The notes under the pieces: generated by a model
The model's input: only the letters and a program-made list of their open reading frames with translations
What the model was told of the DNA's origin: nothing
The model's database searches: none
From: an uncultured Acidimicrobiaceae bacterium
Lineage (GTDB): Bacteria; Actinomycetota; Acidimicrobiia; Acidimicrobiales; RAAP-2
NCBI GenBank assembly: GCA_963808355.1
Contig: CAWEFL010000003.1
Location: 112,153 to 176,152 of the forward strand
Reading direction: 5' to 3'
Length of the DNA: 64,000 nucleotides
Program-made: the position numbers and the translations under genes
Shown here: positions 5,979 to 58,651 of the stretch, in pieces
Numbering within the stretch: the first letter of the stretch is position 1
Layout: every line of letters starts with the position of its first letter

Positions 5979-6905
5979 GTGAGGATTCTCGTCACCAACG
6001 ACGACGGAGTGGGGGCGCCGGGGCTGGCGGCCCTGACCCGGGCCGTGCTGGGGTGGGCGGAGTCCCAGCACGAGGTCGTCGTGGTGGCGCCGAGCTCGAA
6101 CTACAGCGGAGGCGCCGCGGCCGTCGGGTCGGTGACGGACCGGACCACGATCACCTACCAGCGCGCCTTCGTCGAGGGGGCCGAGCAGGTGGAGGCCTAC
6201 GGGCTCGATGCGTCGCCGGCGTTGTCCGTGATCGCCGGCGCCCTCGGCGCGGTCGGCCCGAAGCCGGATCTCGTGCTCTCGGGCATCAACCACGGGGTCA
6301 ACGTGGGACGGTCGGTGCTGCACTCGGGCACGGTGGGCGCCGCGCTGACGGCCAGCCAGCTCGGGATCAGCGCGTTGGCCGTATCGCTGCGCGCGGGTGC
6401 CGACCCGGACCCGTGGGACTCCGCAGCCGCGCTGGCCGTCGCGCTCCTCCCGGTCCTCGTGGGGGCGCCCGCGCGCACCGTCCTCAACCTGAACGTGCCG
6501 GCCCTCCCGCTTCAAGAGATCCGCGGCGTGCGCTGGGCCCGCGTGAGCGGCGCGGGTCTCATCAAGTCGGCCCGCGGTGGCGGAGCCGTGGTCGGGGACG
6601 GGACCTGGGTGGCGCCCAACCGCCAGGAGATGGAGGGCCCCGCCGCGGCCGAGGCGGCCCGCTCGGTCATGGAGGGCGAGCCCGAGGAGAAGGGCGAGAT
6701 CGTGCTGACGGTGGGCTCGCCCTTCCCCCATTCGGGCGACCTGGGGCTGGCCGACGCCGGCACCGAGGACGCGACCCTGGTGGCGCAGGGCTACGCCGCG
6801 CTGACGGCCCTGCGCGGCCCCCGAGCCGAGGACGACCCCGAGCTCCTGTCGCAGCTCGACGGCGGGCTGGGCCCGGCGCTCGGAGGGTTCGAGTTCGCCG
6901 GCTGA
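5979..6905 (+). CDS. surE: 5'/3'-nucleotidase SurE
   Basis: Intact 308 aa with MRILVTNDDGVGAPGL and SGINHGVNVG motifs. Confidence 0.9.
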   Translation: MRILVTNDDGVGAPGLAALTRAVLGWAESQHEVVVVAPSSNYSGGAAAVGSVTDRTTITYQRAFVEGAEQVEAYGLDASPALSVIAGALGAVGPKPDLVLSGINHGVNVGRSVLHSGTVGAALTASQLGISALAVSLRAGADPDPWDSAAALAVALLPVLVGAPARTVLNLNVPALPLQEIRGVRWARVSGAGLIKSARGGGAVVGDGTWVAPNRQEMEGPAAAEAARSVMEGEPEEKGEIVLTVGSPFPHSGDLGLADAGTEDATLVAQGYAALTALRGPRAEDDPELLSQLDGGLGPALGGFEFAG

Positions 6906-7455: not shown

Positions 7456-8469
7456 ATGGACTATCGGCATCTCGGGAACTCGGGCCTCGAAGTCTCGGCC
7501 CTGGCGTACGGCAACTGGATCACGCACGGCAGCCAGATAGAAGAGGAGGCCGCCAAGGCCTGCGTCCGGGCCTCCCTGGACGAAGGGATCACCACCTTCG
7601 ACACGGCCGACGTCTACGCGCTCGGGCAGGCGGAGACCGTCCTGGGACGGGCGCTCAAGAGCGCGGGCGTGGCACGCGACTCCGTCGAGATCTTCACCAA
7701 GGTGTACTGGCCCACCGGTCCCAACCCCAACAACCGCGGTCTCTCGCGCAAGCACATCTTGGAGTCGTTGCACGCGTCGCTGGCTCGGCTGCAGACGGAC
7801 CACGTCGACCTGCTCCAGGCCCACCGCTACGACTACGAGGCCCCGCTGGAGGAGACGCTGCGCGCCTTCGACGACCTGGTACGCCAGGGCAAGGTGCACT
7901 ACGTGGGGGTGTCGGAGTGGACGGCCGAACAGATCGCGGATGCGCTGCGCCTGGCCGACGACATGGGGTTCGACCGGCTCGTGTCGAACCAGCCCCAGTA
8001 CTCGCTCATCTGGCGGGTGATAGAGGCCGAGGTCGTCCCGCTGTGCGAGAACGAGGGGATCGGGCAGGTCGTGTGGTCCCCGCTGGCCCAGGGGATCCTG
8101 ACCGGCAAGTACCCGCCGGGCGCGGGGGCGGCGCCTCCCGCGGGCACGCGGGCGACCGGCCCCGAGGGCGGCGAGATGGGCTGGCTCCTGCGCGACGAGG
8201 TGCTCGAACCGGTGCAGGCCTACGCCGCACTGTGCCACGAGGCGGGCTACACCCCGGCGGCGGTCGCGCTCAGGTGGGTCCTGCGCAACCAGAACGTCAG
8301 CGCGGCCATCGTGGGGGCCAGCCGGCCCGAGCAGATAAAGGAGAACGTCAAGGCGCTCGACGTCGTGCTCGAGCCCGACTTCGTGGAGGCGATTGAGCAG
8401 GCGCTCGAGCCGACGACGCTGTTCGACCCGGCCTTCACCTTCAGCCCGGCGAACCGAAGCGAGATGTGA
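7456..8469 (+). CDS. aldo/keto reductase
   Basis: ATG 7456. MDYRHLGNSGLEVSALAYGNW..., FDTADVY, HRYD, SNQPQYSL. Intact. Confidence 0.9.
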   Translation: MDYRHLGNSGLEVSALAYGNWITHGSQIEEEAAKACVRASLDEGITTFDTADVYALGQAETVLGRALKSAGVARDSVEIFTKVYWPTGPNPNNRGLSRKHILESLHASLARLQTDHVDLLQAHRYDYEAPLEETLRAFDDLVRQGKVHYVGVSEWTAEQIADALRLADDMGFDRLVSNQPQYSLIWRVIEAEVVPLCENEGIGQVVWSPLAQGILTGKYPPGAGAAPPAGTRATGPEGGEMGWLLRDEVLEPVQAYAALCHEAGYTPAAVALRWVLRNQNVSAAIVGASRPEQIKENVKALDVVLEPDFVEAIEQALEPTTLFDPAFTFSPANRSEM

Positions 8470-8926
8470 ACGACCTCACCGCCAGGGTGGAGTGCGTCCG
8501 CCGCTCCTCGAAGACCCGCACGTACCCGGTGTGCGCGATGCGCCAGCCGTCGGACGTCTTGACGTAGCGGTCGGTGTAGAACGCGGTCCCGCCGATCTGG
8601 AGGTCGGCGGCCGGCACGATGACGAGGTCCTGCAGGTACCACGTGCCCTCGGCGGTGGTGTCCGACGTGAGGGTGATCTCGGGGTGGTGGCCGTGGTGCT
8701 CGGTCACGATGCCAGGATCGCCCAGTGCCTGCGCCAGCCACTCGACGACGGCGCGGCGCCCCTCGAGCTTGGACCGTCCGTCCTCGTAGGAGGTGGTGCA
8801 GTCCTCCGTCAGCAGGGCGCCGAGGGCTTCGAACTGCTTGAGGTCGAGCGTGCGGAAGTAGGCGTACTTCAGCTGGCGGATGGCCTCGAGCTCGGTGGCC
8901 TCTTCCCCGTGCACCCCGTCGCTCAC
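8441..8926 (-). CDS. SnoaL-like / NTF2-fold protein
   Basis: ELEAIRQLKYAYFRTLDLKQFEALGALLTEDC... is typical of the SnoaL_4 type. The GTG start at 8926 is inferred. It overlaps the AKR 3-prime end by 29 nt. Confidence 0.6.
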   Translation of the reverse strand: MSDGVHGEEATELEAIRQLKYAYFRTLDLKQFEALGALLTEDCTTSYEDGRSKLEGRRAVVEWLAQALGDPGIVTEHHGHHPEITLTSDTTAEGTWYLQDLVIVPAADLQIGGTAFYTDRYVKTSDGWRIAHTGYVRVFEERRTHSTLAVRSFTSRFGSPG

Positions 8927-9458: not shown

Positions 9459-10801
9459 GCGGCGCTGCCGCGGGCGACAGGGGCGACGCGGGCGACGGGC
9501 GGCACCACGTCGTCATCATCGGCTGCGGGTTCGGCGGCCTTTTCGCAGCGAAGGCCCTCAAGCGCGAAGCCGTGCGGGTGACCCTCATCGACCGCACGAA
9601 CCACCATCTCTTCCAGCCCCTGCTGTACCAGGTGGCCACGGGCATCCTGTCGGAGGGCCAGATCGCTCCGGCCATCCGCGAGGTGCTGCGCAACCACCGC
9701 TCGGTCAACACCGTCCTGGCCGAGGTGGTGCGCATCGACACCGAGGCCCACGTCGTCCACGCCGACGAGTTCGGGCGCCCGCTGGCCGTCGACTACGACA
9801 GCCTGATCGTGGCCGGCGGGTCCACCACGTCCTACTTCGGGCACGACGAGTTCCGCTCCTACGCCAAGGGAATGAAGTCCCTCGACGACGCGCTCGCGCT
9901 GCGAGGCCAGATCTTCGGTGCGTTCGAGTGCGCCGAGGCGGAGGGCGACGCAGAGACACGGCGGAGCCTGATGACCTTCGTCGTGATCGGCGGTGGTCCC
10001 ACGGGCGTCGAGATGGCGGGTCAGCTGGTGGAGCTGTCGCGCCGGGCGCTGCGGCGGAACTACCGCCGCATCGACCCCGGGGCCGCCCGCGTCGTGTTGG
10101 TCGAAGGGGGCGACGAGCTGGTGGTGCAAATGGGCGGGCGGCTGTCTCGCATGGCGGCGCGCGACCTCGGTCGGCTCGGGGTGGAGATCCACCTCGGCGC
10201 AATGGTCACCGGCATGGACGAGCGCCTCGTGGAGATCACCAAGAAGGACGGCGCCATCGAGCGCATCGCCGCCGCCACCCGCATCTGGGCGGCAGGCACT
10301 CGGGCCTCGGGGCTGGGTGGGCTCCTTGCCGGGGCGGACGGAGTGGAGCTGGACAAGGCGGGCCGGGTCGTGGTGGCACCGGACTGCTCGGTCCCCGGGC
10401 ACCCCGAGGTCTTCGTCGTCGGGGACCTGATGGCCCTCGACGACCTGCCAGGCGTGGCCGAGGTGGCCATGCAGTCGGGTAGGCACGCCGCGCGCACCAT
10501 CGTGCGGCGCCTGGAGGGGAAGCCGGCGAAGCGCTTCCGCTACCGCGACCTGGGCACGCTCGCGGTGATCTCGCGGTTCCGAGCCCTGGCCAAGGTCGGG
10601 CCGGTGCGCGTGGGTGGCCTGATCGGGTGGCTGCTGTGGCTGGTGGTCCACATCACGTTCCTCACCGGCTTCAAGAACCGCTTCGGGGCGCTGGCCCGGT
10701 GGGCCGTCAGCTTCATCGGGCGAGGTCGCTACGAGCGGGCGCTGACCGGGCGCTGGGTGGCCCGGGCTGCCGGGGCCGACCGGGCGAGCGGTTCTGCCTA
10801 A
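9455..10801 (+). CDS. ndh: type II NADH:quinone oxidoreductase (NDH-2)
   Basis: VVIIGCGFGGLFAAKAL dinucleotide fold, HLFQPLLYQVATG, second GxGxxG (VIGGGPTGVEMAG). The GTG start overlaps the NUDIX stop (GTGA). Confidence 0.85.
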   Translation: MSGAAAGDRGDAGDGRHHVVIIGCGFGGLFAAKALKREAVRVTLIDRTNHHLFQPLLYQVATGILSEGQIAPAIREVLRNHRSVNTVLAEVVRIDTEAHVVHADEFGRPLAVDYDSLIVAGGSTTSYFGHDEFRSYAKGMKSLDDALALRGQIFGAFECAEAEGDAETRRSLMTFVVIGGGPTGVEMAGQLVELSRRALRRNYRRIDPGAARVVLVEGGDELVVQMGGRLSRMAARDLGRLGVEIHLGAMVTGMDERLVEITKKDGAIERIAAATRIWAAGTRASGLGGLLAGADGVELDKAGRVVVAPDCSVPGHPEVFVVGDLMALDDLPGVAEVAMQSGRHAARTIVRRLEGKPAKRFRYRDLGTLAVISRFRALAKVGPVRVGGLIGWLLWLVVHITFLTGFKNRFGALARWAVSFIGRGRYERALTGRWVARAAGADRASGSA

Positions 10802-10845: not shown

Positions 10846-12096
10846 ATGCCCATCAACGTGACGCCCACTCCGGGGCTGAGTGACCACATCAACGACATCC
10901 GGCTCCGCACCGCCCGCATCGTCAACGAGAAGATCCTCCCCAACGAGGGGGTCCTCTGGCACGGCCGCCGACGCGGGGCGGGCGACGCAGCGCGGGACGA
11001 GGCACGCGCCATCCGGCACGAGATAGAGGACGAGGTCAAGGCCCAGGGCCTCTGGGCGCCGCACCTGCCGCCCGAATACGGCGGCATGGGCCTCGACTTC
11101 ATGGCCCATGCCTACATGAACGAGATCCTCGCCTACGCCGTCGGCGCGGCCGCACTCTTCGGTGTCGTGGCGCCGAACTCGGGCAACCAGACGATCCTGG
11201 CGAAGTACGGCACCGATGAGCAGAAGAAGAAGTGGCTGCTGCCCCTCGTCGAGGGCTCCATGCAGTCGGGCTTCTCCATGACCGAGCCCGAGAACGCCGG
11301 TTCCGACCCGCGCTCCATTCAGACGACGGCCGTCCGTGAGGGCGACGAGTGGGTGATCGACGGCCACAAGTGGTTCACCTCGAACGGGCTGGCCGCCGAC
11401 TTCTTCATCGTCATGTGCCGGGCCAAGGAGTCCAAGGACGAGGCAGGCCCCGGGCGCATGGTCCAGATCATCGTGCCGACGTCCACACCGGGCGTGATCA
11501 TTGAGCGCGGCATCGGGATCTGGGGCGGCACGTCGTCGGACCACTGCGAAGTCCGCTACGACCACGTCCGTGTCCCGCTGGACAACGCGCTCGGACAGGT
11601 TGGCCAGGGTCACCAGGCCGCCCAGGACCGGCTCGGGGCGGGCCGGATCTTCCACTGCATGAACTCGGTGGGGCAGATGTGGCGCGCCTTCGACCTGATG
11701 GTGGAGCGGCTGCTCACCCGCGAGGTGCACGGCGGGCTGCTGAAGGACAAGCAGTTCATGCAGGGCTTCGTCGCCGACAGCTACATGGACCTTCAGGCCG
11801 CCCGCCTGATGACCATCCACGCCGCCGAGAAGGTAGACGCCGGCGACCCGCAGGCCCGGACCGAGATCAGCGCCATCAAGGTCTTCGTCCCGGCCGCCTA
11901 CACCCGCGTGGTGGACCGGGCCATTCAGGTCTGGGGCGCGGCGGGTGTCACCAGCGACCTGCCGTTGGCGGGGATGTACCTGGGCGCCCGCACGCTTCGC
12001 CTCGCCGACGGCCCGGACGAAGTCCACCGCATCCTCATCGCCAAGAACGTGCTGCACCACTACGAGAAGGGCGAGAGCTGGGACTTCGCCGGATGA
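10846..12096 (+). CDS. acyl-CoA dehydrogenase family protein
   Basis: ATG 10846. ...GFSMTEPENAGSDP..., WFTSNG, and a C-terminal RLADGPDEVHR-type ending. Intact. Confidence 0.85.
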   Translation: MPINVTPTPGLSDHINDIRLRTARIVNEKILPNEGVLWHGRRRGAGDAARDEARAIRHEIEDEVKAQGLWAPHLPPEYGGMGLDFMAHAYMNEILAYAVGAAALFGVVAPNSGNQTILAKYGTDEQKKKWLLPLVEGSMQSGFSMTEPENAGSDPRSIQTTAVREGDEWVIDGHKWFTSNGLAADFFIVMCRAKESKDEAGPGRMVQIIVPTSTPGVIIERGIGIWGGTSSDHCEVRYDHVRVPLDNALGQVGQGHQAAQDRLGAGRIFHCMNSVGQMWRAFDLMVERLLTREVHGGLLKDKQFMQGFVADSYMDLQAARLMTIHAAEKVDAGDPQARTEISAIKVFVPAAYTRVVDRAIQVWGAAGVTSDLPLAGMYLGARTLRLADGPDEVHRILIAKNVLHHYEKGESWDFAG

Positions 12097-36268: not shown

Positions 36269-37041
36269 TCAGGCTGCGGCCTTCGAGCGTGACGGCACGT
36301 ACTCGTCGACGTACTCGCGTTCGGACAGCCGCGCGATCTCGTGCATCAGACGGTCGGTGAAAGCTCGGCACTGGGTATGGTCATGGTTCTCCAGCGGGTG
36401 GACGGGATCCTCTGGGGGGTCCATCCGCATGGGCTTGCCGAAGCGGATCGTGACGGTCTTGAACGGCCGCATCATGGTGGAGTTGACGGGCTGCACGTCG
36501 ACGGTACCGACGACGCCGACCGGGATGACGGGCACGCCGCACTCCCGGGACAGACGGGTGACGCCTGTCCGCCCCTTGTGCACGTACTCGTCGAGCGTCC
36601 GGGTGCCCTCGGGGTAGAGGCCCAGCAACTTCCCTCGGCCCAACACGTCGTTGCGGGCTGTCTCGAGGGCGCGTTCGGATGCGCTTCCACCCGTGCGCCG
36701 GATGGGGATCTGGCCAGCGGCCCGGAAGAACCAGGCCGTCTTCCAGGAGTCGAAGTACTCCGCCTTGGCCAGGAACGTGACCTTGCGGGTCACGACGAGC
36801 GGGATGAAGAAGGAGTCGCAGAAGGACTGGTGGTTGGCCGCCAGGACGGCGGGGCCGCTTTGGGGATGTTCTCCCGCCCTTCGACCTTCACCCGCCAGAG
36901 CAAGAAGAAGATCGGCGTCAAGATCGCCTTCAGCACCCAGTACGCCACGGGCCCAAGGTACCCCGCCCCGTCGGCCCCCGCGCCCGTCGGCGGGCTGTGC
37001 TCAACTGCGGATCCACCGCCATCGCTCTTCGAGAGGAGCAC
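36269..37041 (-). pseudogene. 1-acyl-sn-glycerol-3-phosphate acyltransferase (PlsC family), one frameshift
   Basis: ...WRVKVEGRENIPK, then after a switch near 36865, SGPAVLAANHQSFCDSFF (HX4D) ...LYPEGTRT...PVIPVGV. The start is uncertain. Confidence 0.75.
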
Positions 37042-37966: not shown

Positions 37967-39181
37967 CTATCCGAGCTTGGTCAGCGCGCTCCGGAGATGG
38001 CGCACCGCCTGGCCGATGCGCTGCTCGTTCTCGATGAGGGCGAACCGCACATGGCCGTCGCCGCCGGGGCCGAAGCCGACACCGGGCGATGTGGCGACGT
38101 CGCCCTCGCTGACGAGGTACTTGGCGAACTCCAAGGAGCCCATCTCGCGGTACGGCTCGGGGATCGGGGCCCAGACGAACATCGTGCCCTGCGGGCGGGG
38201 CCAGGTGCCACCCGATGCGGTTCAGGCCGTCGCACAGCGGTGTCGCGCCGCGACCGGTAGATCTGGTTGATCTCCTTCGGGTAGTCGGGCGCCTCGTTCA
38301 TGGCCACGATGGCCGCGATCTGAATCGGCTGGAAGGTGCCGTAGTCGAGGTAGGTCTTGAGCTTGGTGAGGGCCTGGACGATCTCTGCGTTCCCGACGAC
38401 GAAGCCGACGCGCCAGCCGGCCATGGAGAACGACTTGGTCATCGTGTAGATCTCGACGGCGACCTCCTTGGCCCCGGGCACCTGGAGGATCGACGGGGGC
38501 TCGTAGCCGTCGAACCCGAGGTCCGCGTAGGCGAAGTCGTGGACGAGCACGACTTCGTGCTCGCGTGCGAATGCGACGAGGCGTTCCATGAACGAGAGGT
38601 CGACACAGGCTGTCGTCGGGTTGTGCGGGAACGAGAGCACGATCACTCGGGGCTTGGGCCAGGACTCCTCCCACGCGTGCATCAGTCCCTCGAAGAACGT
38701 GTCGCCGGGGTCGGGCGCGCCGTCGCCCGTGTCCACGAGCGGTCCGTTCAGGGGCACCTGGCGCACGTCGGCGCCGGCGAAGAGAGGCCCCCAGATGTGG
38801 ATCGGGATAGGAGGGCGAGGGTACGAGCGCGGTGTCGCCGGGACCGACCAGCACCCACATCAGGTGCGAGAAGCCCTCTTTGGCGCCGATGGTCGTGACC
38901 ACCTCGGATTCGGGGTCGAGCTCAATGCCGAACTTGCGCTGGTAGAGGTTGGCGACGGCGCTGCGCAGCTTCGGGATGCCTCGCGAGGCCGAGTAGCGGT
39001 GGTTGCGCGGGTTGTGGGCCGCCTCGGCCAGCTTGTTCACGGCGACGTCGGGCGACGGTAGGTCCGGGTTGCCGAAGCCGAGGTCGATCACGTCCCGCCC
39101 GGCTCGCCGCGACGACAGCTTGAGGTCGTTGATCGTGGCGAAGACGTAGGGCGGCAGCCCGTTGATCCGGCGGAACTCCAT
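37967..39181 (-). pseudogene. class I/II pyridoxal-phosphate aminotransferase, at least two frameshifts
   Basis: ATG 39181. [21 protein letters not shown]...GFGNPDLP...[11 protein letters not shown]..., then ...SFPHNPTT...[15 protein letters not shown] (PLP Lys)..., then [10 protein letters not shown]...ATSPGVGFG. Switches are near 38800 and 38215. Confidence 0.8.
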
Positions 39182-39189
39182 CGGGAAGT

Positions 39190-44666: not shown

Positions 44667-44980
44667 ATGCCGTACGCGGAGGTGACGCCCGAGGAGGTCT
44701 TGGCCCGGCTCGCCCGGGGCGAGGACGTGTACCTGCTCGACGTGCGGGAGCCCGACGAGGTGGCGGAGTGGGCCTACCCGATCGGCGTGCACATCCCGAT
44801 GGGCCAGCTGGGCGAGCGGCTCGACGAGCTCCCGACGGACCGCACCATCGTCGTGGCCTGCCACGCCGGCGACCGTTCGGCGACGGCGGCCCGCGCTCAG
44901 CGAACGCCGGGTGGACGGCGGAGAACCTCGCCGGCGGCGCCATCGCCTGGGCGGCCATGGAGCCCGACGCGCCCAAATAG
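44667..44980 (+). pseudogene. rhodanese-domain sulfurtransferase, one frameshift
   Basis: ...VYLLDVREPDEVAEW...IVVACHAGDRSA (the CxxxxR(S/T) loop), then ...SANAGWTAENLAGGAIAWA in another frame (switch near 44900). Confidence 0.7.
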
Positions 44981-45032
44981 GGCGGGCTGGGAACGACTCG
45001 ATTGTGGAACGAGTCGAGTAGGGCTTGTCGAG

Positions 45033-45105
45033 TAGGGCTGGTGGGGATCGAACCCACGACCCAAGGATTATGAGTCCTCTGCTCTGACCACTGAGCTACA
45101 GCCCC
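45033..45105 (-). tRNA. tRNA with CAT anticodon (Met elongator type, or possibly Ile2/lysidine type)
   Basis: Hand-folded cloverleaf: GGGGCTG TA GCTC AGTGGTCA GAGC A GAGGA CTCATAA TCCTT GGGTC GTGGG TTCGATC CCCAC CAGCCCT A. There is a G1-U72 wobble. It lacks the initiator features (no C1-A72 mismatch, no GGG/CCC anticodon stem). CCA is not encoded. Confidence 0.9.
45070..45105. repeat. left copy of 36-nt direct repeat (5-prime half of the tRNA, G1 to anticodon)
   Basis: ATGAGTCCTCTGCTCTGACCACTGAGCTACAGCCCC on the plus strand. It recurs at 51411-51446 with 34/36 identity. Confidence 0.85.
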
Positions 45106-45113
45106 AAGCTGCG

Positions 45114-45119
45114 ATTATA
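45114..45119 (-). promoter_or_regulatory. perfect TATAAT 8 nt upstream of the tRNA 5-prime end (island-side DNA)
   Basis: Plus-strand ATTATA at 45114-45119 lies within the AT-rich stretch GCGATTATATTTTTAGACG. No convincing -35 at 16-18 nt. Confidence 0.35.
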
Positions 45120-45136
45120 TTTTTAGACGCGTTGCT

Positions 45137-46390
45137 ATGACCCAACAGGTGACCCAACACCCAAAACGCCGGGCCCGACACGCCGCCGATCTCCGGTATC
45201 TCAACGAAAAACGACCCGGCGTGTGGCAGGTGACCGTGTACATCAGGCGCAATCCTGACACGGGCAAACAAGAGTTCAAATACGAGACGGTTTACGGCAC
45301 CCTCGCCCACGCTCAGGCTCGACGTGATGCACTGAGGCTCGCTGTAACGCGAGGGAAATACGATCGGGGTTCCCGTCTCTTCGGCGCCGTGCTCGACGAG
45401 TGGTTGACGCACCTTCGGAAGCAAGGTCGCGAAGAATCGACGCTTGCTGGGTACTCCACGCACGTCGAGCGCGACATTCGCCCCGCGCTCGGGCACCTGC
45501 CCGTAGACAAGCTCACCGCCCGTGACCTCGACCGCTTCTTCGGCGGCATGGGCGACCATCCCGGCGCCCGCAAACCACTGCTGGCGCATCGCAAGCGCCA
45601 CACTGAACACTGCCGTCCGATGGGACTACATCGACGTCAACCCGATCACCAAAGCGACGCGACCGGAGTGGACGACGTTCGAACATCGCGTCCCCACTCC
45701 CGACGAGGTTGAACGTCTACTCGCCGAGGCTGCGCAGGAACCTCGCCGCTCCCTCGTCATGGACGACCCGACACAGATTCCCGACCTGCTCCTCACGGCC
45801 GTGCTGACGGGAATGCGAGACGGTGAACTGTGCGGGCTGAGATTCTCCCAGATCCGCTCTGGCGCTCACGAGAATGATTTCGGCGAGTTAACGGTGAACC
45901 GCACCATCCGGGAAACCGGATCGAGGAGAGCGGGAACGTACAAGTGGGGTCACAAGGACCGAACTAAATCGAAGAAGTACCGCACCATCCCCGTCGACCC
46001 CCGCGTCATCCGAATAGCGCAAAATCGAGCTATAAAAATGGCCGCCGACGCCCGCACGTTGAGCGTCCGCATGCCCGATGATCCCTACGTTTTTCCGAGG
46101 ACCTGGCCGGGTCGGAACCGCTCAAACCGTCATTCGTCTCGGGCACGTTCCGTCGCATCAAGACCCGAGCAGGCGTCGATTGCCGACTCCACGATCTGCG
46201 GGGGTACTCAATCACCGAGATGCTGGGCGCCGGGTACGACGCTCGCACTGTTGCCGACCTCCACGGGCGTGCCGATCCCTCCCTCACCTTGCGTCGCTAC
46301 GCCGTTCTCGCAAAGACACCGGCCGCGAAGCCGCCGCAGCCGTCGGGCGAACGATTCGTACGAACCCGGACGCCCGACCCCCCGCCCTGA
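45137..46390 (+). pseudogene. tyrosine recombinase / phage-type integrase, two frameshifts
   Basis: SAM-like N-domain (WLTHLRKQGREESTLAGYSTHVERDIRPALG). Box I is LLLTAVLTGMRDGELCGLR. Then, after switches near 45560 and 46105, HDLRGYSITEML and LHGRADPSLTLRRYA (catalytic Tyr). Stop at 46388-46390. Confidence 0.85.
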
Positions 46391-46618
46391 ACTCCTGACG
46401 CTCCAGGGCCTGGGCCAGCTCGTAGGGCCGGCTAGCGGGGCCTCCTCCTCTCTCGAGGTTTCTTTTCCAAGACCGAGCATGCTCGGATCTCACAAGGGGC
46501 GGAGGCCCCGCCCCTTCTTCGCATCAGATGAGTGGCGCCTATCGGTTCGCCCGGTCGGGTATGTAAACCCGCTGGCGACCATCCCAAGTTGGACCGAGGA
46601 TCAGGCGCTCAGCTGGAG

Positions 46619-48442
46619 TCAATTGTCGATCTCTACCGCCACCCATGGGCTCGTTTCGTGAAGCCCACCCGGGGCGAAGGCGACGCTGCGAAGGAAGTAC
46701 TCCCCGTTTGGCACCGAATGAGTGTTCCAGCCACCGAGCCAGCCGAAGTCGAATCTGAACCCTTGGCTGATCACTTGGGATCCTCCTTGGCCCCCGCGCC
46801 GTTCGAACTGCACGTTGGTGACCCCGTACTCATCGGAAGCTTCGGCAATCAGAGGCTCCACGCCGCGCAAGACCTGACCGCTTGTCGGTTTTGCCACAAC
46901 GGTCGTCGGCGGAGTGTGATTGATCGGTATCTGCTGGCGGGCGTACTCGGCGGCCTCGCCGGTCGAAAACATGGCGAGATGGTGGGAACGGATGAAGCCC
47001 ACCAGCGCGCGGACGAACCCCGCCGTTTGATATTGCGGACCCAGCTGGCTCGTAACGAGTTCGTCAGGAGCTTGGTCCACATGAACCGTAATGACCACAT
47101 TCGCCGCTTCGTAGCTCCGATCGCCCTCGGCGCCCGAGATGCCATTTACAGTGCCGAAGATGGCGAGAACGCCGATGACCAGAACGACCACCACGGAGGG
47201 CACGGCAGCGACGGGCCTTGATCTCTGCGCACCCTCCGTGGCGCCTCGGTGTGCGAACCGGTCCATCGCGACCAGGTAGGAGCCGGCGACGACGAGTAGA
47301 TCGAATGTGACGTAGCGCGAAGTGCCCGCGCCGCTGAGTCCACCAACGGCTCGGCCGCCGGCGATGGCTGCGGCGAAGAGCAACCCTGTCCAAACCAGCG
47401 CTACCCCGACGGGCCGGCCGGTCGACACATCCACACGAAGGCCCGATGACACGATCGCCCAGATCCCGGCGGCCAAGGTCACGAGCCCCAAGACGAAGAT
47501 GGCGTACTGTCCACCGCTCGGGGAGTTCGAGATGTTGGCGCCGACGATGTCGCCCAGGGCGAAGACGTAGAACCTGAGGAACTCAGCGGGGTGATGGAGG
47601 GCAAAGCTTATGCTTTCACCCGACCCCTGGGATCTCCAGTTGTAGAAGTACAGGGCCGTCGCCAGCACGCCGGCGGTGATCCAAGCGAACACGAAAGGCT
47701 TCGGACGGGTTCTTTGGAGCAAGAGGGCGAGGCCGACGGGCCACACGAAGAGCCCCTGGAGTGACGAGTAGCTGGCGACGACACCGGCGGCTATTGCCCC
47801 AGCGAGCACGACCCAGGTGAGGACGGGGCGATCCACCAGGAAGAGGACGAGCGCGAGCATGATCAAGACGAGATACCAGCCAACCTGGAAGCCGTAGAGG
47901 GTGTCTCCCCACTGCGCCAACGAGAACATGACGATGGCCACCGGGCAGTACCAGATCCACGCCGTCGACGGAGAACGGCGCCGATGTGCCACCACGATGA
48001 GCGCCGTGGCTCCGATCAGGAGCACGACGTCGAGGTACACCTGAACGAGCACGTTGAAGTGGGCCAGGTGCGCAACCAGGAGAGTGATCAGGTTCTGAAA
48101 AAAGATGCGGTTGTCACTGTGCTGATTCCACAACATGCTGAGGCTCAGGGTCCCGTTGAACGAGTGCTGGATCAATTGGACGTCGTACCACTGGTCCGCC
48201 CGGAGCACGTCGAGCGAGTCCCTTGCCGTCAGCCACACATAGAGCCCGATCGGGATCGAAAACCCGAGAACGCCTAGGACCGTGAGGAGTGGACGACTCG
48301 CAACTGCGGCGTCATCGCCAGCTTCGAGCGGGGTGGACTCCGAGACGCCTCGCTCGCCGAGTTTGGCCTCCATTTCCCTGAGCCTCGCCCTCCGGCACCG
48401 ACAACCACGGGATTTCGTCCCCCAGACCGCAGAGTATGGCAT
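46619..48442 (-). CDS. polytopic membrane protein (putative GT-C-fold glycosyltransferase) with C-terminal Ig-like domain
   Basis: Intact 607-aa ORF with many hydrophobic spans by eye. The first loop after TM1 is acidic (ARDSLDVLRADQWYD). The C-terminal soluble domain GVTNVQFERRGG...WLGGWNTHSVPNGEYFLRSVAFAPGG is homologous to the tail of 22499-24836. The start (48442 or 48373) is uncertain. Confidence 0.6.
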   Translation of the reverse strand: MPYSAVWGTKSRGCRCRRARLREMEAKLGERGVSESTPLEAGDDAAVASRPLLTVLGVLGFSIPIGLYVWLTARDSLDVLRADQWYDVQLIQHSFNGTLSLSMLWNQHSDNRIFFQNLITLLVAHLAHFNVLVQVYLDVVLLIGATALIVVAHRRRSPSTAWIWYCPVAIVMFSLAQWGDTLYGFQVGWYLVLIMLALVLFLVDRPVLTWVVLAGAIAAGVVASYSSLQGLFVWPVGLALLLQRTRPKPFVFAWITAGVLATALYFYNWRSQGSGESISFALHHPAEFLRFYVFALGDIVGANISNSPSGGQYAIFVLGLVTLAAGIWAIVSSGLRVDVSTGRPVGVALVWTGLLFAAAIAGGRAVGGLSGAGTSRYVTFDLLVVAGSYLVAMDRFAHRGATEGAQRSRPVAAVPSVVVVLVIGVLAIFGTVNGISGAEGDRSYEAANVVITVHVDQAPDELVTSQLGPQYQTAGFVRALVGFIRSHHLAMFSTGEAAEYARQQIPINHTPPTTVVAKPTSGQVLRGVEPLIAEASDEYGVTNVQFERRGGQGGSQVISQGFRFDFGWLGGWNTHSVPNGEYFLRSVAFAPGGLHETSPWVAVEIDN

Positions 48443-48599
48443 CGATTCCTCGCCGAGCGCCGTCCCGGGATGCAGGGCGCGCCTTCCTTGAACCTGCTGA
48501 TCCAGGTGTCCGCAGATGTCAGACTGCGAGGAACCTATGGGCGTAGGCGTGTCGGTGCCACAAGTCGAAACTCAAGCCCCGGCTTCAGGCGTTGGCCTC

Positions 48600-49260
48600 G
48601 GAGCTGATCCCCGACCATTTCGCCTGGCGGTGACACCTTCTGCCACATGGACGCCGGAGCAGACGCTTCACTACGTCGAGGCCCAGCAACGGGTGAGTGA
48701 CCTGACAGGCCATCCCCTCGCCGAAACGTGCAGCTGGGGTACACATTGCCCAGTTGGGCGCCCGCGGACCGGCTGTTCGTCGAGGGCTATTGCGACAGTG
48801 TCTATATCTCGGACGGCGAGGCAACGCCGACCAGTCACTATAATTCGTCTTCGGAGGCGGCGGCTGGCTGCTCGTCGAGAGCGGCCCTCATGGGTCTCTG
48901 TGCCCGTTGCTGGTCGACGAAGCAAGGCTGACGCCGGTACTCCGGACCTCCCTCGTCCGGGCCGATGCGGCGTTCTTGCACTGATGGGGATGTATGGCCA
49001 AGCCGTCTACGCCACCACCACCCAAAAAGGGCCATTCTGGCCGAGCCAAACTCTCAGGTGGTCGCCCTCAGGCAGTTCGACGTCTCCCTCGAGCACGTCG
49101 TGAACGTTGGACTGCCGGGCCCTCATGCCCGCACCCTTACCGCCAAGCTGCTGACTGACACCGGTTCGGTCTGGGCGCTCTCGCGAAGACCGCCAGCCAG
49201 AATCACCAGAGTGAGACGGCGGCCGGCTCGACCCGAGACGTGGTCTTGCGATGGGGCCGG
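48600..49260 (+). pseudogene. degraded ORF of unknown family inside the island
   Basis: Two same-frame stretches have strong G/C third-position bias (LGYTLPSWAPADRLFVEGYCDSVYISDGE...; AILAEPNSQVVALRQFDVSLEHVVNVGLPG...). They are separated by TGA at 48929-48931. No family recognised and the limits are approximate. Confidence 0.2.
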
Positions 49261-49456
49261 ATGACGTCCGACTACACGTCGCTGCTACACGAGCCTTGTC
49301 GCGCCCGCGACCGGTTGAGCCCGGGAACGGGAGGATCTGAGTCGCAGGGCTCAGCGGGCGGCACGGAGGGCGTCGACAGCCATGTGGTGATCCTGTTTAC
49401 CGGGCGGGCAACGGTGCTCCTGACCACATCGGCTCGGGGCCAGGCCACCGCTGCGA

Positions 49457-50759
49457 TCACGCAGTCCACATCCTGTGAAACCACTGGAATAGGGCCACTA
49501 GCCCGATCGCGGCGAGAACGGCGATGGACGGCTCCGCGGCTACCCGGAAGCGGGTGTCGCCGTAGGTGACAGCCACGGTGAGCGCGACAGCCACAATCGG
49601 CGCCAAGAGAATCAGCGGTTTTCGCCACGACCGGGTCACGAGTACGACGATGCCTCCAACAGCACAGGGCACGAGCACCCAGTACACGACACCAATCTTT
49701 CCCAGGCGGCGCTGCGCCCACCGTAGACGGCAGGTCCTGTTGAAAGCCCTGTCCGGTCAGGGCCCACGTCGAGACTTCCCGGGAGAGGACGACCCTTGGC
49801 AACTGCCCGAGGTGGGTGCGAGCGAAGTGCTCCGCATCGTGCGTGAGGTGGTGGTCGATCTGGACCTCGTTCCATCGTCGCGCTCCGTCGGGAGGCTTGA
49901 CATACTTGAAGTAGAACTCCTCTGCGGCGTCCGCATCCACACCGGCGAAGTTGCCGAAGTAGCCTGTATGAGGGTCGAAGCATTGCTGACAGTACGAGCC
50001 CGCAAGGGTGAGACCAGTCTGCGTCGAGAGCGAGGCGGTCCCGAGTTGGATCTCATTGCGGACGATCCAAGGCACCAGGAGGGTCGCTGCACCGATCAAC
50101 GTTGCAGCCGCGAGTCGCGCTCTTGCCTTCAGGCCGCTGTTGCTCATCAGCAGTACGGGGAGTCCAAGAAGGATTAACAAGATGACCGCCTCGCTCCTGA
50201 TCAGCGTCGCGATCCCGATCGTCAATCCCATTGTCACGAAGCGCCAGAACGTGGCTCGTTCCGTGGCCCGCATGGCGGCGAGTAATACAAGAGGTATGGC
50301 CACCAAGTAGATGGTCTCGCTCATGAGGCTCCCGATGGTTTGCAGCCACAAGGGATGAAGCGCTGCGATGGCGGCCGCCACGACTCCAACCATCGGGTCC
50401 AGAGCACGGCGGCCCACCAAACCCATAACGACGACAGCCGACGAAGTGACCACGGCAAGAGCGACACGTTGCGCAGCCACCGACTGGATCCCCCCGAGGT
50501 CCAACATTGCGAGAAGTAACGAAAAAAACGGTGGGTGCGCTGCTGTCGCAACTGCTTTCGTCGGGTCGGTGGGGAAAGGATAGGCATAGCCCCTTCCCGC
50601 AATCAGATTGCTCGCGGTCGACCGGAAAAACACAGCATCATTCGCGACGCGCTGGAAATGCGCCAGAGTGACGAAAAGGATACGAACGATCAATCCGATG
50701 ATTGTCAACGTGATCAGCAGTGGCCAGAACCAGGTTGACGAGCTCCGCGCGACTTCCAT
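49457..50759 (-). pseudogene. GT-C family glycosyltransferase (ArnT/PMT_2-like), one frameshift
   Basis: ATG 50759. MEVARSSSTWFWPLLITLTIIGLIVRILFV...DAVFFRSTASNLIAGRGYAY...HPPFFSLLLA... is typical of dolichyl/undecaprenyl-phosphate-sugar-dependent transferases. The last two TM spans (RRLGKIGVVYWVLVPCAVGGIVVLV...) are in another frame (switch near 49720). Confidence 0.7.
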
Positions 50760-51410
50760 CTCCCTCTGTCCCGTTTGGACTCTCGGCTCAACTGCCGTCG
50801 ACTTGTTGACGACCACGACCTGGACCTTTTCAACGCCCGCTTGCAAGGCGCACGCTACCGACCTAAGCGGCTACGGGCCAGCAAAACTTGGGGCTACGTG
50901 GCCGGCCTGAGCGTGCGACAGGACTACTCGCCCAAGATCGCGTTGGGGCGACCCCCCACCGGTAAGGGCCGGGCCACATCTGCTGAACCGAGGGCCCGGA
51001 CGTCGGGGCGATCATGCCGACCTTGAGGAATCGATCTGCGCTGCCAGCGCCCTGAGCTGCGCGCCAGCGGCTCGCAGTGCGCCCGCCACTCGGCCCAGTT
51101 CGGCTTTGCTCACACCATGCGCAGCAGTGCGAACGTCGGTCTGGGCGAACAATAGCGCGCGCAGCGGCGTTATTGATGGCGGCGACCTCGGCGGCGAGGT
51201 TGAACGGGTCGGTTCGGCCCTTCGCTTCTTCCGCCACTCGGCACTCTTTTCCGCGATTGGCGGCGGCGCTAGCCCGCGCCGAGCGTGGGGTAAGACGTTT
51301 GTCATCTGCGGCGCATCCCCGCTGATGTGCCCCGTTGGCGATTTCGGGGTCCGGTAAACTGTCATGTGACGTGCGAAAACGTTGCAGATTTCCCGACTCC
51401 ACATCGATCA

Positions 51411-51446
51411 ATGAGTCCTCTGCTCTGATCACTGAGCTGCAGCCCC
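51411..51446. repeat. right copy of 36-nt direct repeat (orphan 5-prime half of tRNA-Met)
   Basis: ATGAGTCCTCTGCTCTGATCACTGAGCTGCAGCCCC has two mismatches to 45070-45105. Beyond the anticodon there is no complementary anticodon-stem strand and no T arm. Confidence 0.85.
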
Positions 51447-51453
51447 GCACGCG

Positions 51454-51481
51454 ATCTTACCGAGGCCGGGTTTTGGGCCAA
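51454..51481 (-). promoter_or_regulatory. candidate original tRNA-Met promoter left upstream of the orphan 5-prime half
   Basis: Minus strand: TTGGCC (51481-51476), 16-nt spacer, TAAGAT (51459-51454), then 7 nt to G1 of the orphan half. Confidence 0.4.
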
Positions 51482-51661
51482 CGTGGCTCTGGACGTGGGC
51501 ATGCGGTCCCCGAGCAGGCCGGTTTTGGCAACATACCTGCGTGCCCGGGCTGACGACCGAGCCGTCCGACCGAGCCGGAGAACGAGCAGCTGACCGAGTC
51601 AACAGCGCCAAACGATCCACCCCGGCGTGACATCGCCTGGTACGGGCCGTGGCTCGTCGTC

Positions 51662-53884
51662 GTGCTGGCGGCCGCGTGGGGACTGTGGACGCTGCGCCCC
51701 GAGCTGCGGGCGGTGCCGTATCTCGATGACAGCTCCATCCACCAGCAGATGGTGCGCTTCGCGGCGACGCGCTGGTCGCAGGGGCACCTGCCGCTGACGA
51801 GCTGGTTCCCCTACCTCGGTCTCGGCTCGCCCCAATTCCTCCACTACCAGTCGCTGCCCTCTATGACCGCCGGCGTCTTCGGCACGTTCATCGACCCTGA
51901 CACGGTGTTCCGTTGGTCGCTGTACCTTCTGCTCGCGCTGTGGCCGCTCACCGTGTACTGGTGCGCCCGGCTCTTCGGGCTGTGCCGCTGGACGGCGGCG
52001 GCGGCTGCGGCCATCTCACCGTTCCTCGCTTCGGTGCCCGGCATCGGGTACGAGACCGAGGCGTACGTCTGGCGCGGCTACGGCGTGTGGACACAGCTCT
52101 GGGCATCGTGGACGCTGCCACTGGCGTGGGGCTTCTCCTACAGGGCCCTGACCTCGGTACGGCGGCGGGCGCTACTGGCGGCGGTCCTCTTCATCATGCT
52201 CACCGTCGGTCTGCACTTCGAGACGGGGTATCTCGCGTTCGTTCCTTTGGTGGTGTGGCCGTTCATGGTGCCGTCGGACCTGTGGCGCCGGCTCGGCCGC
52301 GCCGTGCTGGTCGGTGGCCTGGCGCTGCTCGCGTCGGCCTGGGTGATCGTGCCGTTGTTGGCGCAGTCGCACTGGGCGGCACGCAACCAGATCCTCCAAA
52401 GCACCGGCCTCGAGAACGGCTACGGCGCGCGCCAGGTCCTGATTTGGCTGTTCACCGGACGGCTCCTCGACAACGGCCACTCGTTCCTCTCCGTGCCGTT
52501 CCCCGTCATCACGATCCTGCTGGGCGTCGGGATCGTGGCGTGCATCGTATGGTGGCGGACGTTCGCCGCGGGACGTGCGCTTGTCGCCATCTTCGTCGTC
52601 ACGCTGCTCATGACGTTCGGGCGCACCACCTTCGGCGGCCTGTATTCCATCCTCCCGGGAAGCAGCGACGTCTTCATCCGGCGCTTCGAAATGGGCGTGC
52701 AGCTCTCGGGACTGCTGTTGGCGGGGATCGGGATCGTGGGGTTGGGCCGGCTGGCGCTCGGTGCGCTGCGGTCGGTCTTGTCCGAGCAGAGACGGCGAAG
52801 CCTCGGCAAGCCGGCCGGGCGGGTCCTGGTCGCTGCGCTCAGTGTCGTCGCGCTCATTGCGGTGCTGGCCCCCGCCTGGATCTTCCTGCGCGCCTACGAC
52901 TCGCAGAACGGCACCAACGTGTCGCTGCAGGCCCAGGCCGACAGCCAGGAGTCACCGCAACTCGACCGTCTGTTGGACTACGTCAAGGCGCACCCCAAAG
53001 GCCGCGTGTACGCGGGCTCTCCGACCAACTGGGGCACGGACTTCACCGTGGGCGACGTCCCGGTGTTCAAGTACCTCGAGAGCCAGGACATCGACGAGGT
53101 GGGCTACACGCTCCGGACCGCCTCGCTCATGACCGACCCCGAATACTTCTTCGACGAGTACAACCCGGGCGACTACCCGCTCTTCGGCATCGGCTACCTG
53201 ATCGTGCCGGAGGGCATGGCACCGCGGGTGCCGGCCGACCGGATCGAGTGCCAGGGGCAATACTGCCTGTACGCGCTCCCCGACCCCGGCTACGTCCACG
53301 TGTACGACACGGTGGGGACTCTGACCGCGACACGGGCCGACGTCGGCACGCAGAGCGAGACCCTATTGGCGTCACCGGAGCTGTCCGCCCACCGCGACGA
53401 GACGGTCGCTTTCAACGGAGGTGCGGCCGCACCTGGGACGGCGTCAGACGCGGCGTCACTCCGCGGACCACCGGGCCACGTCGTCGGCGAAGATGCCGAC
53501 CTCGCGTCCGGACAGGTTCACGCCGCCGTCAAGACGAACCGCACCGCGACGGTCGTCCTCAGCGCCTCCTACGACCCGGGCTGGACGGCGACCGTGGACG
53601 GGCAGCCCCGGCCCACCGTCATGGTCGCCCCGGCGCTGGTGGGCGTCGTCGTCGGTCCGGGCGTGCACGAGGTGTCATTCCAGTACGTCGGGTACAGCGG
53701 GTACCCGGCGCTGTTCGCGCTCGCCCTCCTGGTGTTCGTCGGGATCGCGGCGGGGCCGCCGTTGTGGCGGCGGGTGCGATCGGCGCGGCGGTGGCGGGTG
53801 CCGGGGAGCCGGGGCCGACCCGGCCCGCTCGGACATCCCACCGGACCCGAACTGGTTGAGGCAGGCGCCACCGGGGAAGAATGA
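51662..53884 (+). CDS. YfhO-like polytopic membrane glycosyltransferase (GT-C fold)
   Basis: Intact 740 aa with many TM spans. The first loop is VPYLDDSSIHQQM. The C-terminal pattern ...VVLSASYDPGWTATVDGQPRPTVMVAPALVGVVVGPGVHEVSFQY, followed by a final TM span, is typical of YfhO-family ends. GTG 51662 is the first canonical start. Confidence 0.65.
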   Translation: MLAAAWGLWTLRPELRAVPYLDDSSIHQQMVRFAATRWSQGHLPLTSWFPYLGLGSPQFLHYQSLPSMTAGVFGTFIDPDTVFRWSLYLLLALWPLTVYWCARLFGLCRWTAAAAAAISPFLASVPGIGYETEAYVWRGYGVWTQLWASWTLPLAWGFSYRALTSVRRRALLAAVLFIMLTVGLHFETGYLAFVPLVVWPFMVPSDLWRRLGRAVLVGGLALLASAWVIVPLLAQSHWAARNQILQSTGLENGYGARQVLIWLFTGRLLDNGHSFLSVPFPVITILLGVGIVACIVWWRTFAAGRALVAIFVVTLLMTFGRTTFGGLYSILPGSSDVFIRRFEMGVQLSGLLLAGIGIVGLGRLALGALRSVLSEQRRRSLGKPAGRVLVAALSVVALIAVLAPAWIFLRAYDSQNGTNVSLQAQADSQESPQLDRLLDYVKAHPKGRVYAGSPTNWGTDFTVGDVPVFKYLESQDIDEVGYTLRTASLMTDPEYFFDEYNPGDYPLFGIGYLIVPEGMAPRVPADRIECQGQYCLYALPDPGYVHVYDTVGTLTATRADVGTQSETLLASPELSAHRDETVAFNGGAAAPGTASDAASLRGPPGHVVGEDADLASGQVHAAVKTNRTATVVLSASYDPGWTATVDGQPRPTVMVAPALVGVVVGPGVHEVSFQYVGYSGYPALFALALLVFVGIAAGPPLWRRVRSARRWRVPGSRGRPGPLGHPTGPELVEAGATGEE

Positions 53885-57169: not shown

Positions 57170-57496
57170 ATGGCATCGGCCGACGAACGGGGCGGCCCCG
57201 CGCAGGCGGGCTCGACGACCCTGGCCCCGGCCCGGCCGGCCCCCGACCTCGACGACGGGGACCACGACCGGATGGCCCACATTGTGTTGGAGGGGTTCGC
57301 CCCGAAGGAGGGCGAGCACGCCGGCGAGTACGTGAGCGCCGGCCCCAGCGTGGTCGAGGGCATCGTGAACCGGACGGCGGTGCGGGCGCTGTGCGGCAAG
57401 GAGTGGGTGCCGGGCCGGGACCCTTCCCGCTACGGCCTGTGCCCGACCTGCAAAGAGATCGCCGAGTCCCTGGGCTGGAAGATCCCGGCCCGCTGA
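57170..57496 (+). CDS. DUF3039 family protein
   Basis: ...RMAHIVLEG...[33 protein letters not shown] matches the actinobacterial DUF3039 pattern. Confidence 0.75.
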
Positions 57497-57521
57497 GCGT
57501 CGGCCCGAGTACGGTGCGGCG

Positions 57522-58651
<1,130 letters not shown>

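Follow-up and report, generated by a model that had tools for sequence, protein, structure and literature searches.

A probable 6.3-kb integrative island of reversed polarity in a tRNA-Met gene of an uncultured Acidimicrobiaceae bacterium

We describe a segment of ~6.3 kb that lies inside a tRNA-Met gene in a 64,000-nt stretch of DNA (referred to below as the window) from an uncultured Acidimicrobiaceae bacterium (GenBank assembly GCA_963808355.1, contig CAWEFL010000003.1, positions 112,153 to 176,152 of the forward strand). The segment very probably represents an integrative genomic island, comprising positions 45106-51410 plus one copy of a 36-nt repeat, that is inserted with reversed polarity, i.e., with the 5' half of the tRNA gene contributed by the element. 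A preliminary description of this stretch, made from the sequence alone, had pointed to such an arrangement, and the analysis reported here follows up its claims.

ARAGORN finds a single tRNA gene in the whole window, an intact tRNA-Met(CAT) on the minus strand at 45032-45105, which folds into a cloverleaf and over 45033-45105 scores 73.4 bits against the Rfam tRNA model. Judged by the pairing of G1 with U72 and by the anticodon stem GAGGA/UCCUU, it is not an initiator tRNA. The first 36 nt of the gene (45070-45105) recur in direct orientation at 51411-51446, again on the minus strand, with 34 of 36 positions (94%) identical. The repeat block starts exactly at G1 and stops at the anticodon (position 36); past this point the second copy, which we call the orphan 5' half, lacks the 3' strand of the anticodon stem and the T arm and continues in sequence unrelated to tRNA, and neither ARAGORN nor Rfam calls a tRNA there. 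Two substitutions distinguish the orphan, U8 to C and the second G of the D-loop GG to A (G19>A), both at near-invariant tRNA positions. The intact tRNA, its partial copy and the mismatches had all been claimed in the preliminary description and were recovered here by ARAGORN and Rfam, by a repeat finder and a scan for tRNA fragments, and by alignment, respectively; the truncation past the anticodon agrees with ARAGORN calling only one tRNA. Read in the direction of the tRNA, the orphan 5' half comes first, followed by the island and then the full tRNA. In the terminology of attachment sites the orphan is attR and the block at 45070-45105 is the identity block of attL, which would be the island-derived 5' half if the crossover took place in the anticodon loop.

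A tyrosine integrase gene (45137-46390, plus strand) is divergent from the tRNA, and its ATG at 45137 lies 31 nt from G1. The gene has Pfam matches to Phage_int_SAM_3 and Phage_integrase, and three-frame translation places frame changes near 45577 and 46095. When the frame-corrected protein is aligned with 14 homologues, its R, K, HxxR and Y positions coincide with invariant columns. The Pfam matches and the alignment bear out the earlier claim of an integrase that starts 31 nt from the tRNA 5' end and has readable catalytic motifs. We found 194 integrase homologues at E<=1e-10, the closest full-length ones being 31-37% identical; the nearest homologue, P0003 (54% identity), comes from a short-read Logan contig and is frame-shifted in appearance, and no integrase of a cultured phage matched above 29% identity. 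Three direct copies of ACCCAA on the plus strand (TTGGGT on the tRNA strand) at 45140, 45152 and 45159 (span 45140-45164), a motif with a density of 0.16 per kb in the window, are candidate arm-type integrase-binding sites.

The composition profile confirms the lower G+C content noted earlier between the two copies (~0.58-0.67 in the island vs 0.66-0.78 in the left flank). Two large cargo genes lie on the minus strand, i.e., on the strand of the tRNA. The open reading frame (ORF) at 46619-48442 encodes a 607-aa polytopic membrane protein whose C-terminus reads as Ig-like, with no sequence match in Pfam, NCBIfam or PDB. The gene at 49457-50846, a 524-aa ORF with one frame change near 49750, encodes a glycosyltransferase-like membrane protein of the GT-C type that matches PMT_2 of Pfam (31.8 bits against a cut-off of 26.1, E=2e-7). 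Searches of NCBIfam and of PDB sequences gave no usable lead on cargo function. The two proteins have no detectable mutual similarity. The preliminary description had taken both cargo genes to be GT-C-like; of the two, only the PMT_2 gene has a family match that supports this. Their products probably modify the cell envelope.

The flanks of the segment are formed by host genes. A rhodanese gene (44667-44980, plus strand, with a frameshift near 44900), assigned by Pfam and by synteny with relatives, is on the left, and a YfhO-like membrane protein gene (51662-53884, plus strand), assigned by Pfam, is on the right. Using the YfhO-like gene as a synteny anchor, we obtained 31 loci from metagenome-assembled genomes (MAGs) of Acidimicrobiales/Acidimicrobiaceae, with protein identity of up to 74%. 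In 10 of the 31 (L001-L007, L011, L020 and L021) an uninterrupted tRNA-Met gene, encoded on the other strand, precedes the YfhO homologue by 260-370 bp. Its sequence is identical to that of the window tRNA in nine of these ten loci, L002 differing by one compensated pair change, and the tRNA is also identical in L008, L009 and L010. When 44881-45069 of the window is joined to 51411-51700, the composite aligns collinearly with the empty-site loci.

The sequence next to the orphan is likewise that of the host. On the tRNA strand most relatives (8 of the 10 with an empty site) have 'cggTAACATc' 6-33 nt before G1, which aligns with 'cggTAAGATc' 7 nt before G1 of the orphan in the window, and a further conserved motif, GGTTTGGCAACAT, follows the box both in the relatives and in the flank of the orphan. 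The displaced host promoter region can thus be read on the minus strand as TTGGCC (51476-51481), 16 nt, TAAGAT (51454-51459) and 7 nt to the orphan G1, just as the preliminary description had it, with a -10 box homologous to the TAACAT of the relatives. Synteny of rhodanese, tRNA and YfhO is also present in L008 and L010. Because the empty sites are collinear, the flank of the orphan is homologous to theirs and the rhodanese synteny is shared, the ancestral order was rhodanese, tRNA-Met, promoter, YfhO. The 6.3 kb, inserted inside the tRNA gene, now lie between its 3' half and the 5' half and promoter of ancestral origin. The empty site that the preliminary description had proposed to look for therefore exists, in at least ten related Acidimicrobiaceae genomes with precisely joined flanks, and the comparison upholds its assignment of the 5' half and the DNA abutting G1 to the element and of the host promoter to the orphan.

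Three further observations concern this site in the host. First, in L010 (602-3013) the tRNA-Met gene is 2.3 kb from the YfhO homologue; an amidase-like gene and two small ORFs occupy the interval, and there is no orphan half, so that either the ancestral arrangement differed or an old insert has lost its repeat to decay. Second, between the tRNA promoter and the YfhO-like gene the window (51520-51549) shares with L001-L007, L020, L021 and L031 a conserved motif, GGTTT(T)GGCAACAT, which may be a promoter or regulatory site of the YfhO-like gene. Third, the last ~8 nt of the tRNA (AGCCCTAC), with a few lineage-specific bases, are repeated in tandem just 3' of the window tRNA at 45013-45039; the unit in the window is GTCGAGTAGGGCT, present twice, L020 has 3-4 copies of a unit of its own, and L003 and L005 are similar. 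These copies are independent duplications in several lineages; events at the 3' end of the same gene could have left them as scars.

The same tRNA-Met site holds other inserts. In L008, a complete chromosome of an Acidimicrobiaceae MAG, the full tRNA (6223-6296) and an orphan 5' half (9681-9720, one mismatch) are 3.4 kb apart, and the TAACAT box typical of the host stands before the orphan. The 3.4-kb insert consists of a single gene for a 966-aa NHL/Vgb-lyase-like repeat protein and has no integrase; its edge at G1, 'accagctt', resembles the 'cgcagctt' of the window. In L031 an orphan half with two mismatches adjoins YfhO, the full tRNA being beyond the 10 kb examined, and the region encodes a GT4 glycosyltransferase, an NHL-repeat protein and a collagen-like ORF. 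Surface-related cargo at this site thus includes NHL-repeat proteins and a GT4 glycosyltransferase (L008 6343-9243; L031 6614-7834 and 2725-3870), and a beta-1,4-glycosyltransferase moron occurs at 3766-4869 of L153, a related phage, in the arm next to its attP; the surface-related cargo of these three loci echoes the PMT_2-type gene of the window island. L031 also contains, at 8275-8620 inside or beside the insert, a second tRNA with a CAT anticodon on the plus strand; it has a tRNA-Ile-like body, and short repeats of its 3' end (CCTGCCGCAC...) are arrayed after it.

Homologues of the window integrase are found in the same geometry at other tRNA genes. The 5' end of a full tRNA lies 60-70 nt from the start of a divergent integrase in four homologue contexts, namely L035 (tRNA-Met, in a prophage), L033/L034 (tRNA-Arg-CCT), L037 (tRNA-Arg-TCT) and L032 (a contig ending inside tRNA-Arg-CCT), and the IMG/VR prophage L045 has the same reversed layout at tRNA-Met. 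The geometry, with integrases 28-36% identical, is seen at tRNA genes of five amino acids and seven anticodons: Met (L035, L045, L205), Arg-CCT (L033, L185, L203), Arg-TCT (L037), Leu (L171, L177), Lys (L182, L191, L199) and Ser (L201, L202). Every one of the reversed relatives has tandem direct repeats of 8-12 nt between the integrase start and G1. Complete reversed islands are delimited in L177 (3.7 kb, tRNA-Leu, orphan positions 1-40, 100% identity) and L191 (9.6 kb, tRNA-Lys, orphan positions 1-42, 97.6% identity); in L033, L035, L037 and all loci of classical polarity no orphan half was found within 10 kb, and the islands are unbounded there. The tRNA-Leu(CAA) gene of L177 (7239-7322) has a 22-nt fragment of its 3' end (1549-1570) 5.7 kb away on the 3' side and the 40-nt 5' half (10948-10987) 3.7 kb away on the 5' side; judged by these fragments, a classical and a reversed island share one gene. 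The tRNA position at which the identity block ends is 36 in the window, 39-40 in L008, 40 in L177, 42 in L191, 41 in the phage L153, 38 in the viral contig L155 and 38 in the circular element L113, so that by sequence comparison the blocks end in the anticodon loop or stem.

The frequency of the two polarities was assessed by scanning metagenomes with the integrase alignment and searching for a tRNA within 600 nt at each of the 80 resulting loci. The tRNA is upstream of the integrase start with its 5' end facing it, i.e., reversed, at 10 loci, and with its 3' end facing it, the classical layout, at 19; it follows the integrase stop in classical orientation at 8 and in reversed orientation at 2, and at 41 loci, many of them on short contigs, there is no tRNA within this distance. 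More distant integrases have the classical layout with the tRNA 3' end after the integrase stop (8 loci in one of the scans and, in the metagenome scan, the 8 just given). The polarity had been described as unusual, which is correct for tRNA islands in general; it is nevertheless already documented, and within this integrase clade 10 reversed loci stand against 19 classical ones. In a rough neighbour-joining tree (200 bootstraps) with 29 ingroup members, 16 reversed and 13 classical, tight subclades are uniform in polarity (91-100% support), and the window integrase belongs to a clade with 72% support that contains eight reversed members and one classical pair (L173/L175, tRNA-Arg-CCT). Parsimony requires at least four polarity changes among the 29 members, a count that is indicative only, the deep nodes of the tree being weak. 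Taken together, the scan and the tree suggest that within this clade polarity is apparently labile and the reversed form common, the two polarities being used about equally often. We also observed that two short-read contigs with integrases of the clade, L032 and L036, break off at their position 1 within the tRNA next to the integrase, the break falling at tRNA position ~42 in the first and ~29 in the second; ends near the limit of the identity block are what a branch of the assembly graph between occupied and empty or free forms would give.

Viral sequences provide a possible view of the unintegrated form. A search of IMG/VR with the tRNA-Met 5' half returned 84 contigs, most of them with complete phage tRNAs, and reading of the sequences identified three with the 5' half only (L153, L155 and L113). 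L153, a phage contig of 42 kb, carries tail-fibre genes, the glycosyltransferase moron and an exonuclease, and its half copy comprises positions 1-41; L155 is a 58-kb viral contig with positions 1-38. In both, the half copy lies 85-110 nt upstream of a divergent integrase that is 30-47% identical to members of the clade of the window integrase, and in L153 tandem CGCCACCAATCG repeats separate the two and tail genes lie on the far side of the half copy. This layout is the one expected of attP in an unintegrated element. L113, a circular 10.6-kb element (141-bp terminal overlap), shares the layout, but its tyrosine integrase is unrelated; it also encodes a D5-type primase.

We propose that the island arose through site-specific recombination by its tyrosine integrase, with the crossover in or beside the anticodon loop and with reversed polarity. 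The attP would have consisted of, in this order, the integrase start, tandem short repeats (probable arm-type sites), an AT-rich segment with a -10 box, and tRNA positions 1 to ~36. Integration would fuse the 5' half of the island to the 3' half of the host gene, giving a tRNA identical to the ancestral one, and would move the 5' half and promoter of the host 6.3 kb away to a place beside the YfhO-like gene. The two strands of the anticodon stem form an inverted repeat around the anticodon loop; strand exchange within this loop would involve a symmetric core usable either way round, and this could be why both polarities occur in one integrase clade. Williams reportedly distinguished in 2002 sublocation classes of tRNA attachment sites, with the anticodon-loop class among the symmetric ones.

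The tRNA now adjoins island DNA (45106-45136, minus strand), which from its sequence and from comparison with the island-side upstream regions of other reversed elements is a putative tRNA promoter. It reads ...aaaaaTATAATcgcagctt up to G1 and contains, as the preliminary description had pointed out, a perfect TATAAT on the tRNA strand (45114-45119), 8 nt before G1; the CAGCTT directly upstream of G1 is common to other reversed elements. The window (TATAAT), L177 (TATAGT), L032 (TAATGT) and L035 (TAGCAT) each have a box similar to a -10 element 8-9 nt before G1, and in several hosts TAACAT precedes G1 by 6-7 nt. A -10 box at 8-9 nt would start transcription at G1 or within ~2 nt of it, and the island's TATAATcgcagctt probably now drives the tRNA, with a start at G1 or 1-2 nt before it. 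It is reasonable to suppose that the tRNA depends on island DNA for its expression. Conversely, transcription from the displaced host promoter may now enter the cargo genes, which have the same orientation. Scored by orientation and GC3, the first ORF past the half copy varies among the elements: it is on the strand of the tRNA in the window, in L008 and probably in L191 and L153, on the opposite strand in L031 and L155, and ambiguous in L177.

Several points weigh against this interpretation. The integrase has no close relative, its best full-length match being 37% identical, and we found neither an excised circle nor an attP of the window island. A strict sigma-70 scan of 44900-51700 detected no promoter on either side, and of 17 reversed elements only 5 have a TANNNT box 3-14 nt before G1. 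Since the tRNA and the cargo genes share one orientation, transcription from the host promoter could read through to the tRNA. The assembly has many indels, which makes small details of the sequence, including the two substitutions in the orphan, somewhat uncertain.

The indels bear directly on the alternative that the integrase and the island are a decaying immobile remnant, in which the frameshifts and the substitutions in the orphan would be real mutations accumulated since an old insertion. This would account for the frame changes near 45577, 46095 and 49750 and for the altered near-invariant tRNA positions, and it fits with the frame-shifted appearance of P0003, the nearest homologue, and with the L008 insert, which keeps no integrase at the same site. 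Conserved host genes of the window, however, show like frame changes. When these genes were compared by tblastn with ORFs of relatives over 36296-63189, which includes 22 kb of conserved coding sequence, ~1 frame change per 2 kb was needed: two at 37970-39184, where the segments are 88-94% identical, two at 57447-58630, and single ones near 36860, 42560, 44203, 44900 (the rhodanese gene), 56110 and 62660. Three frame changes in the 6.3 kb of the island correspond to this background rate of the assembly, and, most simply read, the frame changes are probably long-read assembly errors of the indel type. With a frameshift density equal to that of conserved host genes, the integrase cannot be classed as a pseudogene, and any pseudogene call within the window is unsafe; moreover, its catalytic positions are complete once the frame is restored. 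The two frameshifts that the preliminary description had noted in the integrase are therefore no evidence of decay, and its view of the orphan as a fragment drifting without selection is weak for the same reason. We consider it unlikely, though well worth keeping in mind, that the island is such a remnant.

A second alternative accepts the insertion and places the promoter of the tRNA elsewhere: the tRNA would be fed mainly by the displaced host promoter through a long transcript that starts at 51447-51453 and extends across the orphan and the cargo genes, and from which RNase P and 3' nucleases would release the tRNA, the island TATAAT being incidental or serving the integrase. Both large cargo ORFs and the tRNA are indeed on the minus strand downstream of the host promoter, in L008 47 nt separate the end of the 966-aa cargo gene from the tRNA, both being on one strand, with no clear -10 box before G1, and terminator-like sites in the island are no commoner than in shuffled sequence (6 found vs 4.7 expected). 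The transcript would nevertheless have to cross 6.3 kb, ~1.25 kb of it antisense to the integrase, and the perfect TATAAT at 8 nt is near the spacing of the host -10 box in several relatives and has counterparts in the nearest reversed relatives. The polarity is used, in addition, by elements of up to 10 kb or more and by phages of 42-58 kb, lengths at which read-through is implausible. Taken jointly with its variant for the TATAAT, this explanation appears quite improbable to us, and we prefer transcription of the tRNA from island DNA. The last alternative, that the 36-nt copy is a local partial duplication or rearrangement scar beside which the integrase lies by coincidence, has in its favor only that short tandem duplications of the tRNA 3' end occur beside the gene in several lineages, and can practically be dismissed given that the copy spans exactly G1 to the anticodon, that empty sites in at least ten relatives join the flanks precisely, that the DNA between the copies differs in composition and opens with an integrase, and that the same architecture occurs with related integrases at four other tRNA types and in attP-like phage copies.

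An integrative island of reversed polarity thus being the preferred interpretation, we tentatively raise a broader idea that goes well beyond it and is itself rather doubtful. In this uncultured actinobacterial integrase clade, polarity may be an evolvable trait that has flipped several times, made possible by the symmetric core of the anticodon stem-loop. The reversed form might pay since it would place a strong host tRNA promoter before the distal arm of the element, so that cargo such as the envelope glycosyltransferase genes in the window would be expressed only when integrated, the compact promoter of the element starting the tRNA at or beside G1.

Integration into tRNA genes with reversed polarity is mostly regarded as a curiosity. 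The value of the locus is that it offers a clean, fully bounded bacterial example of the reversed arrangement, with empty sites, both junctions and the displaced promoter, from an integrase clade in which this polarity is common and apparently labile and in which an attP-like form is visible in phage contigs. It implies that island-finding software must accept 5' fragments, it bears on the evolution of att-site specificity at symmetric sites, and it suggests that such elements may rewire the expression of an essential tRNA while gaining a host promoter for their cargo.

Reversed polarity as such is not new, as it was described in 2002, and the locus reveals no new kind of system but an instance of a known, rare kind. 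The known systems with which it can be compared fall into four groups. 1) The bacterial precedent for 5'-distal recombination is the element of Zhao & Williams (2002) as cited by Krupovic et al. (PMC6563490), who call such recombination 'considerably less frequent' than the 3'-distal type. As far as that citation describes it, the element likewise has a tyrosine integrase that uses the 5' part of a tRNA gene, so it must replace the 5' part and the upstream region; compared with what is cited there, the present case is set in Acidimicrobiia, in tRNA-Met and in a clade where both polarities are frequent. 2) The archaeal 5'-distal elements (PMC6563490) have the same reversed polarity, but their hosts and promoters are archaeal and some of their integrases are of other types, and the likeness is one of layout. 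3) Temperate actinophage cassettes, such as those of Rhodococcus phage REQ2 and the mycobacteriophages, have integrases of the same superfamily and place the integrase beside attP between late and early genes, as in L153, while the best match of the window integrase to a cultured-phage integrase is at most 29% identical. 4) Classical tRNA and tmRNA islands, as collected by Islander (PMC4383910), share with the window an integrase beside the regenerated tDNA and a displaced direct tDNA fragment at the far end, and an identity block ending in the anticodon loop is also among their sublocations. The configuration filter of Islander accepts a 5' fragment upstream of the tDNA (PMC4383910), and the window has the features of a tDNA island in its sense: the integrase lies inside, the full tDNA and a fragment in the same orientation are on the correct sides, and relatives lack the island. 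The difference is one of polarity, in that classical elements carry the 3' part and leave the host promoter and 5' half in place, whereas the island in the window does the opposite.

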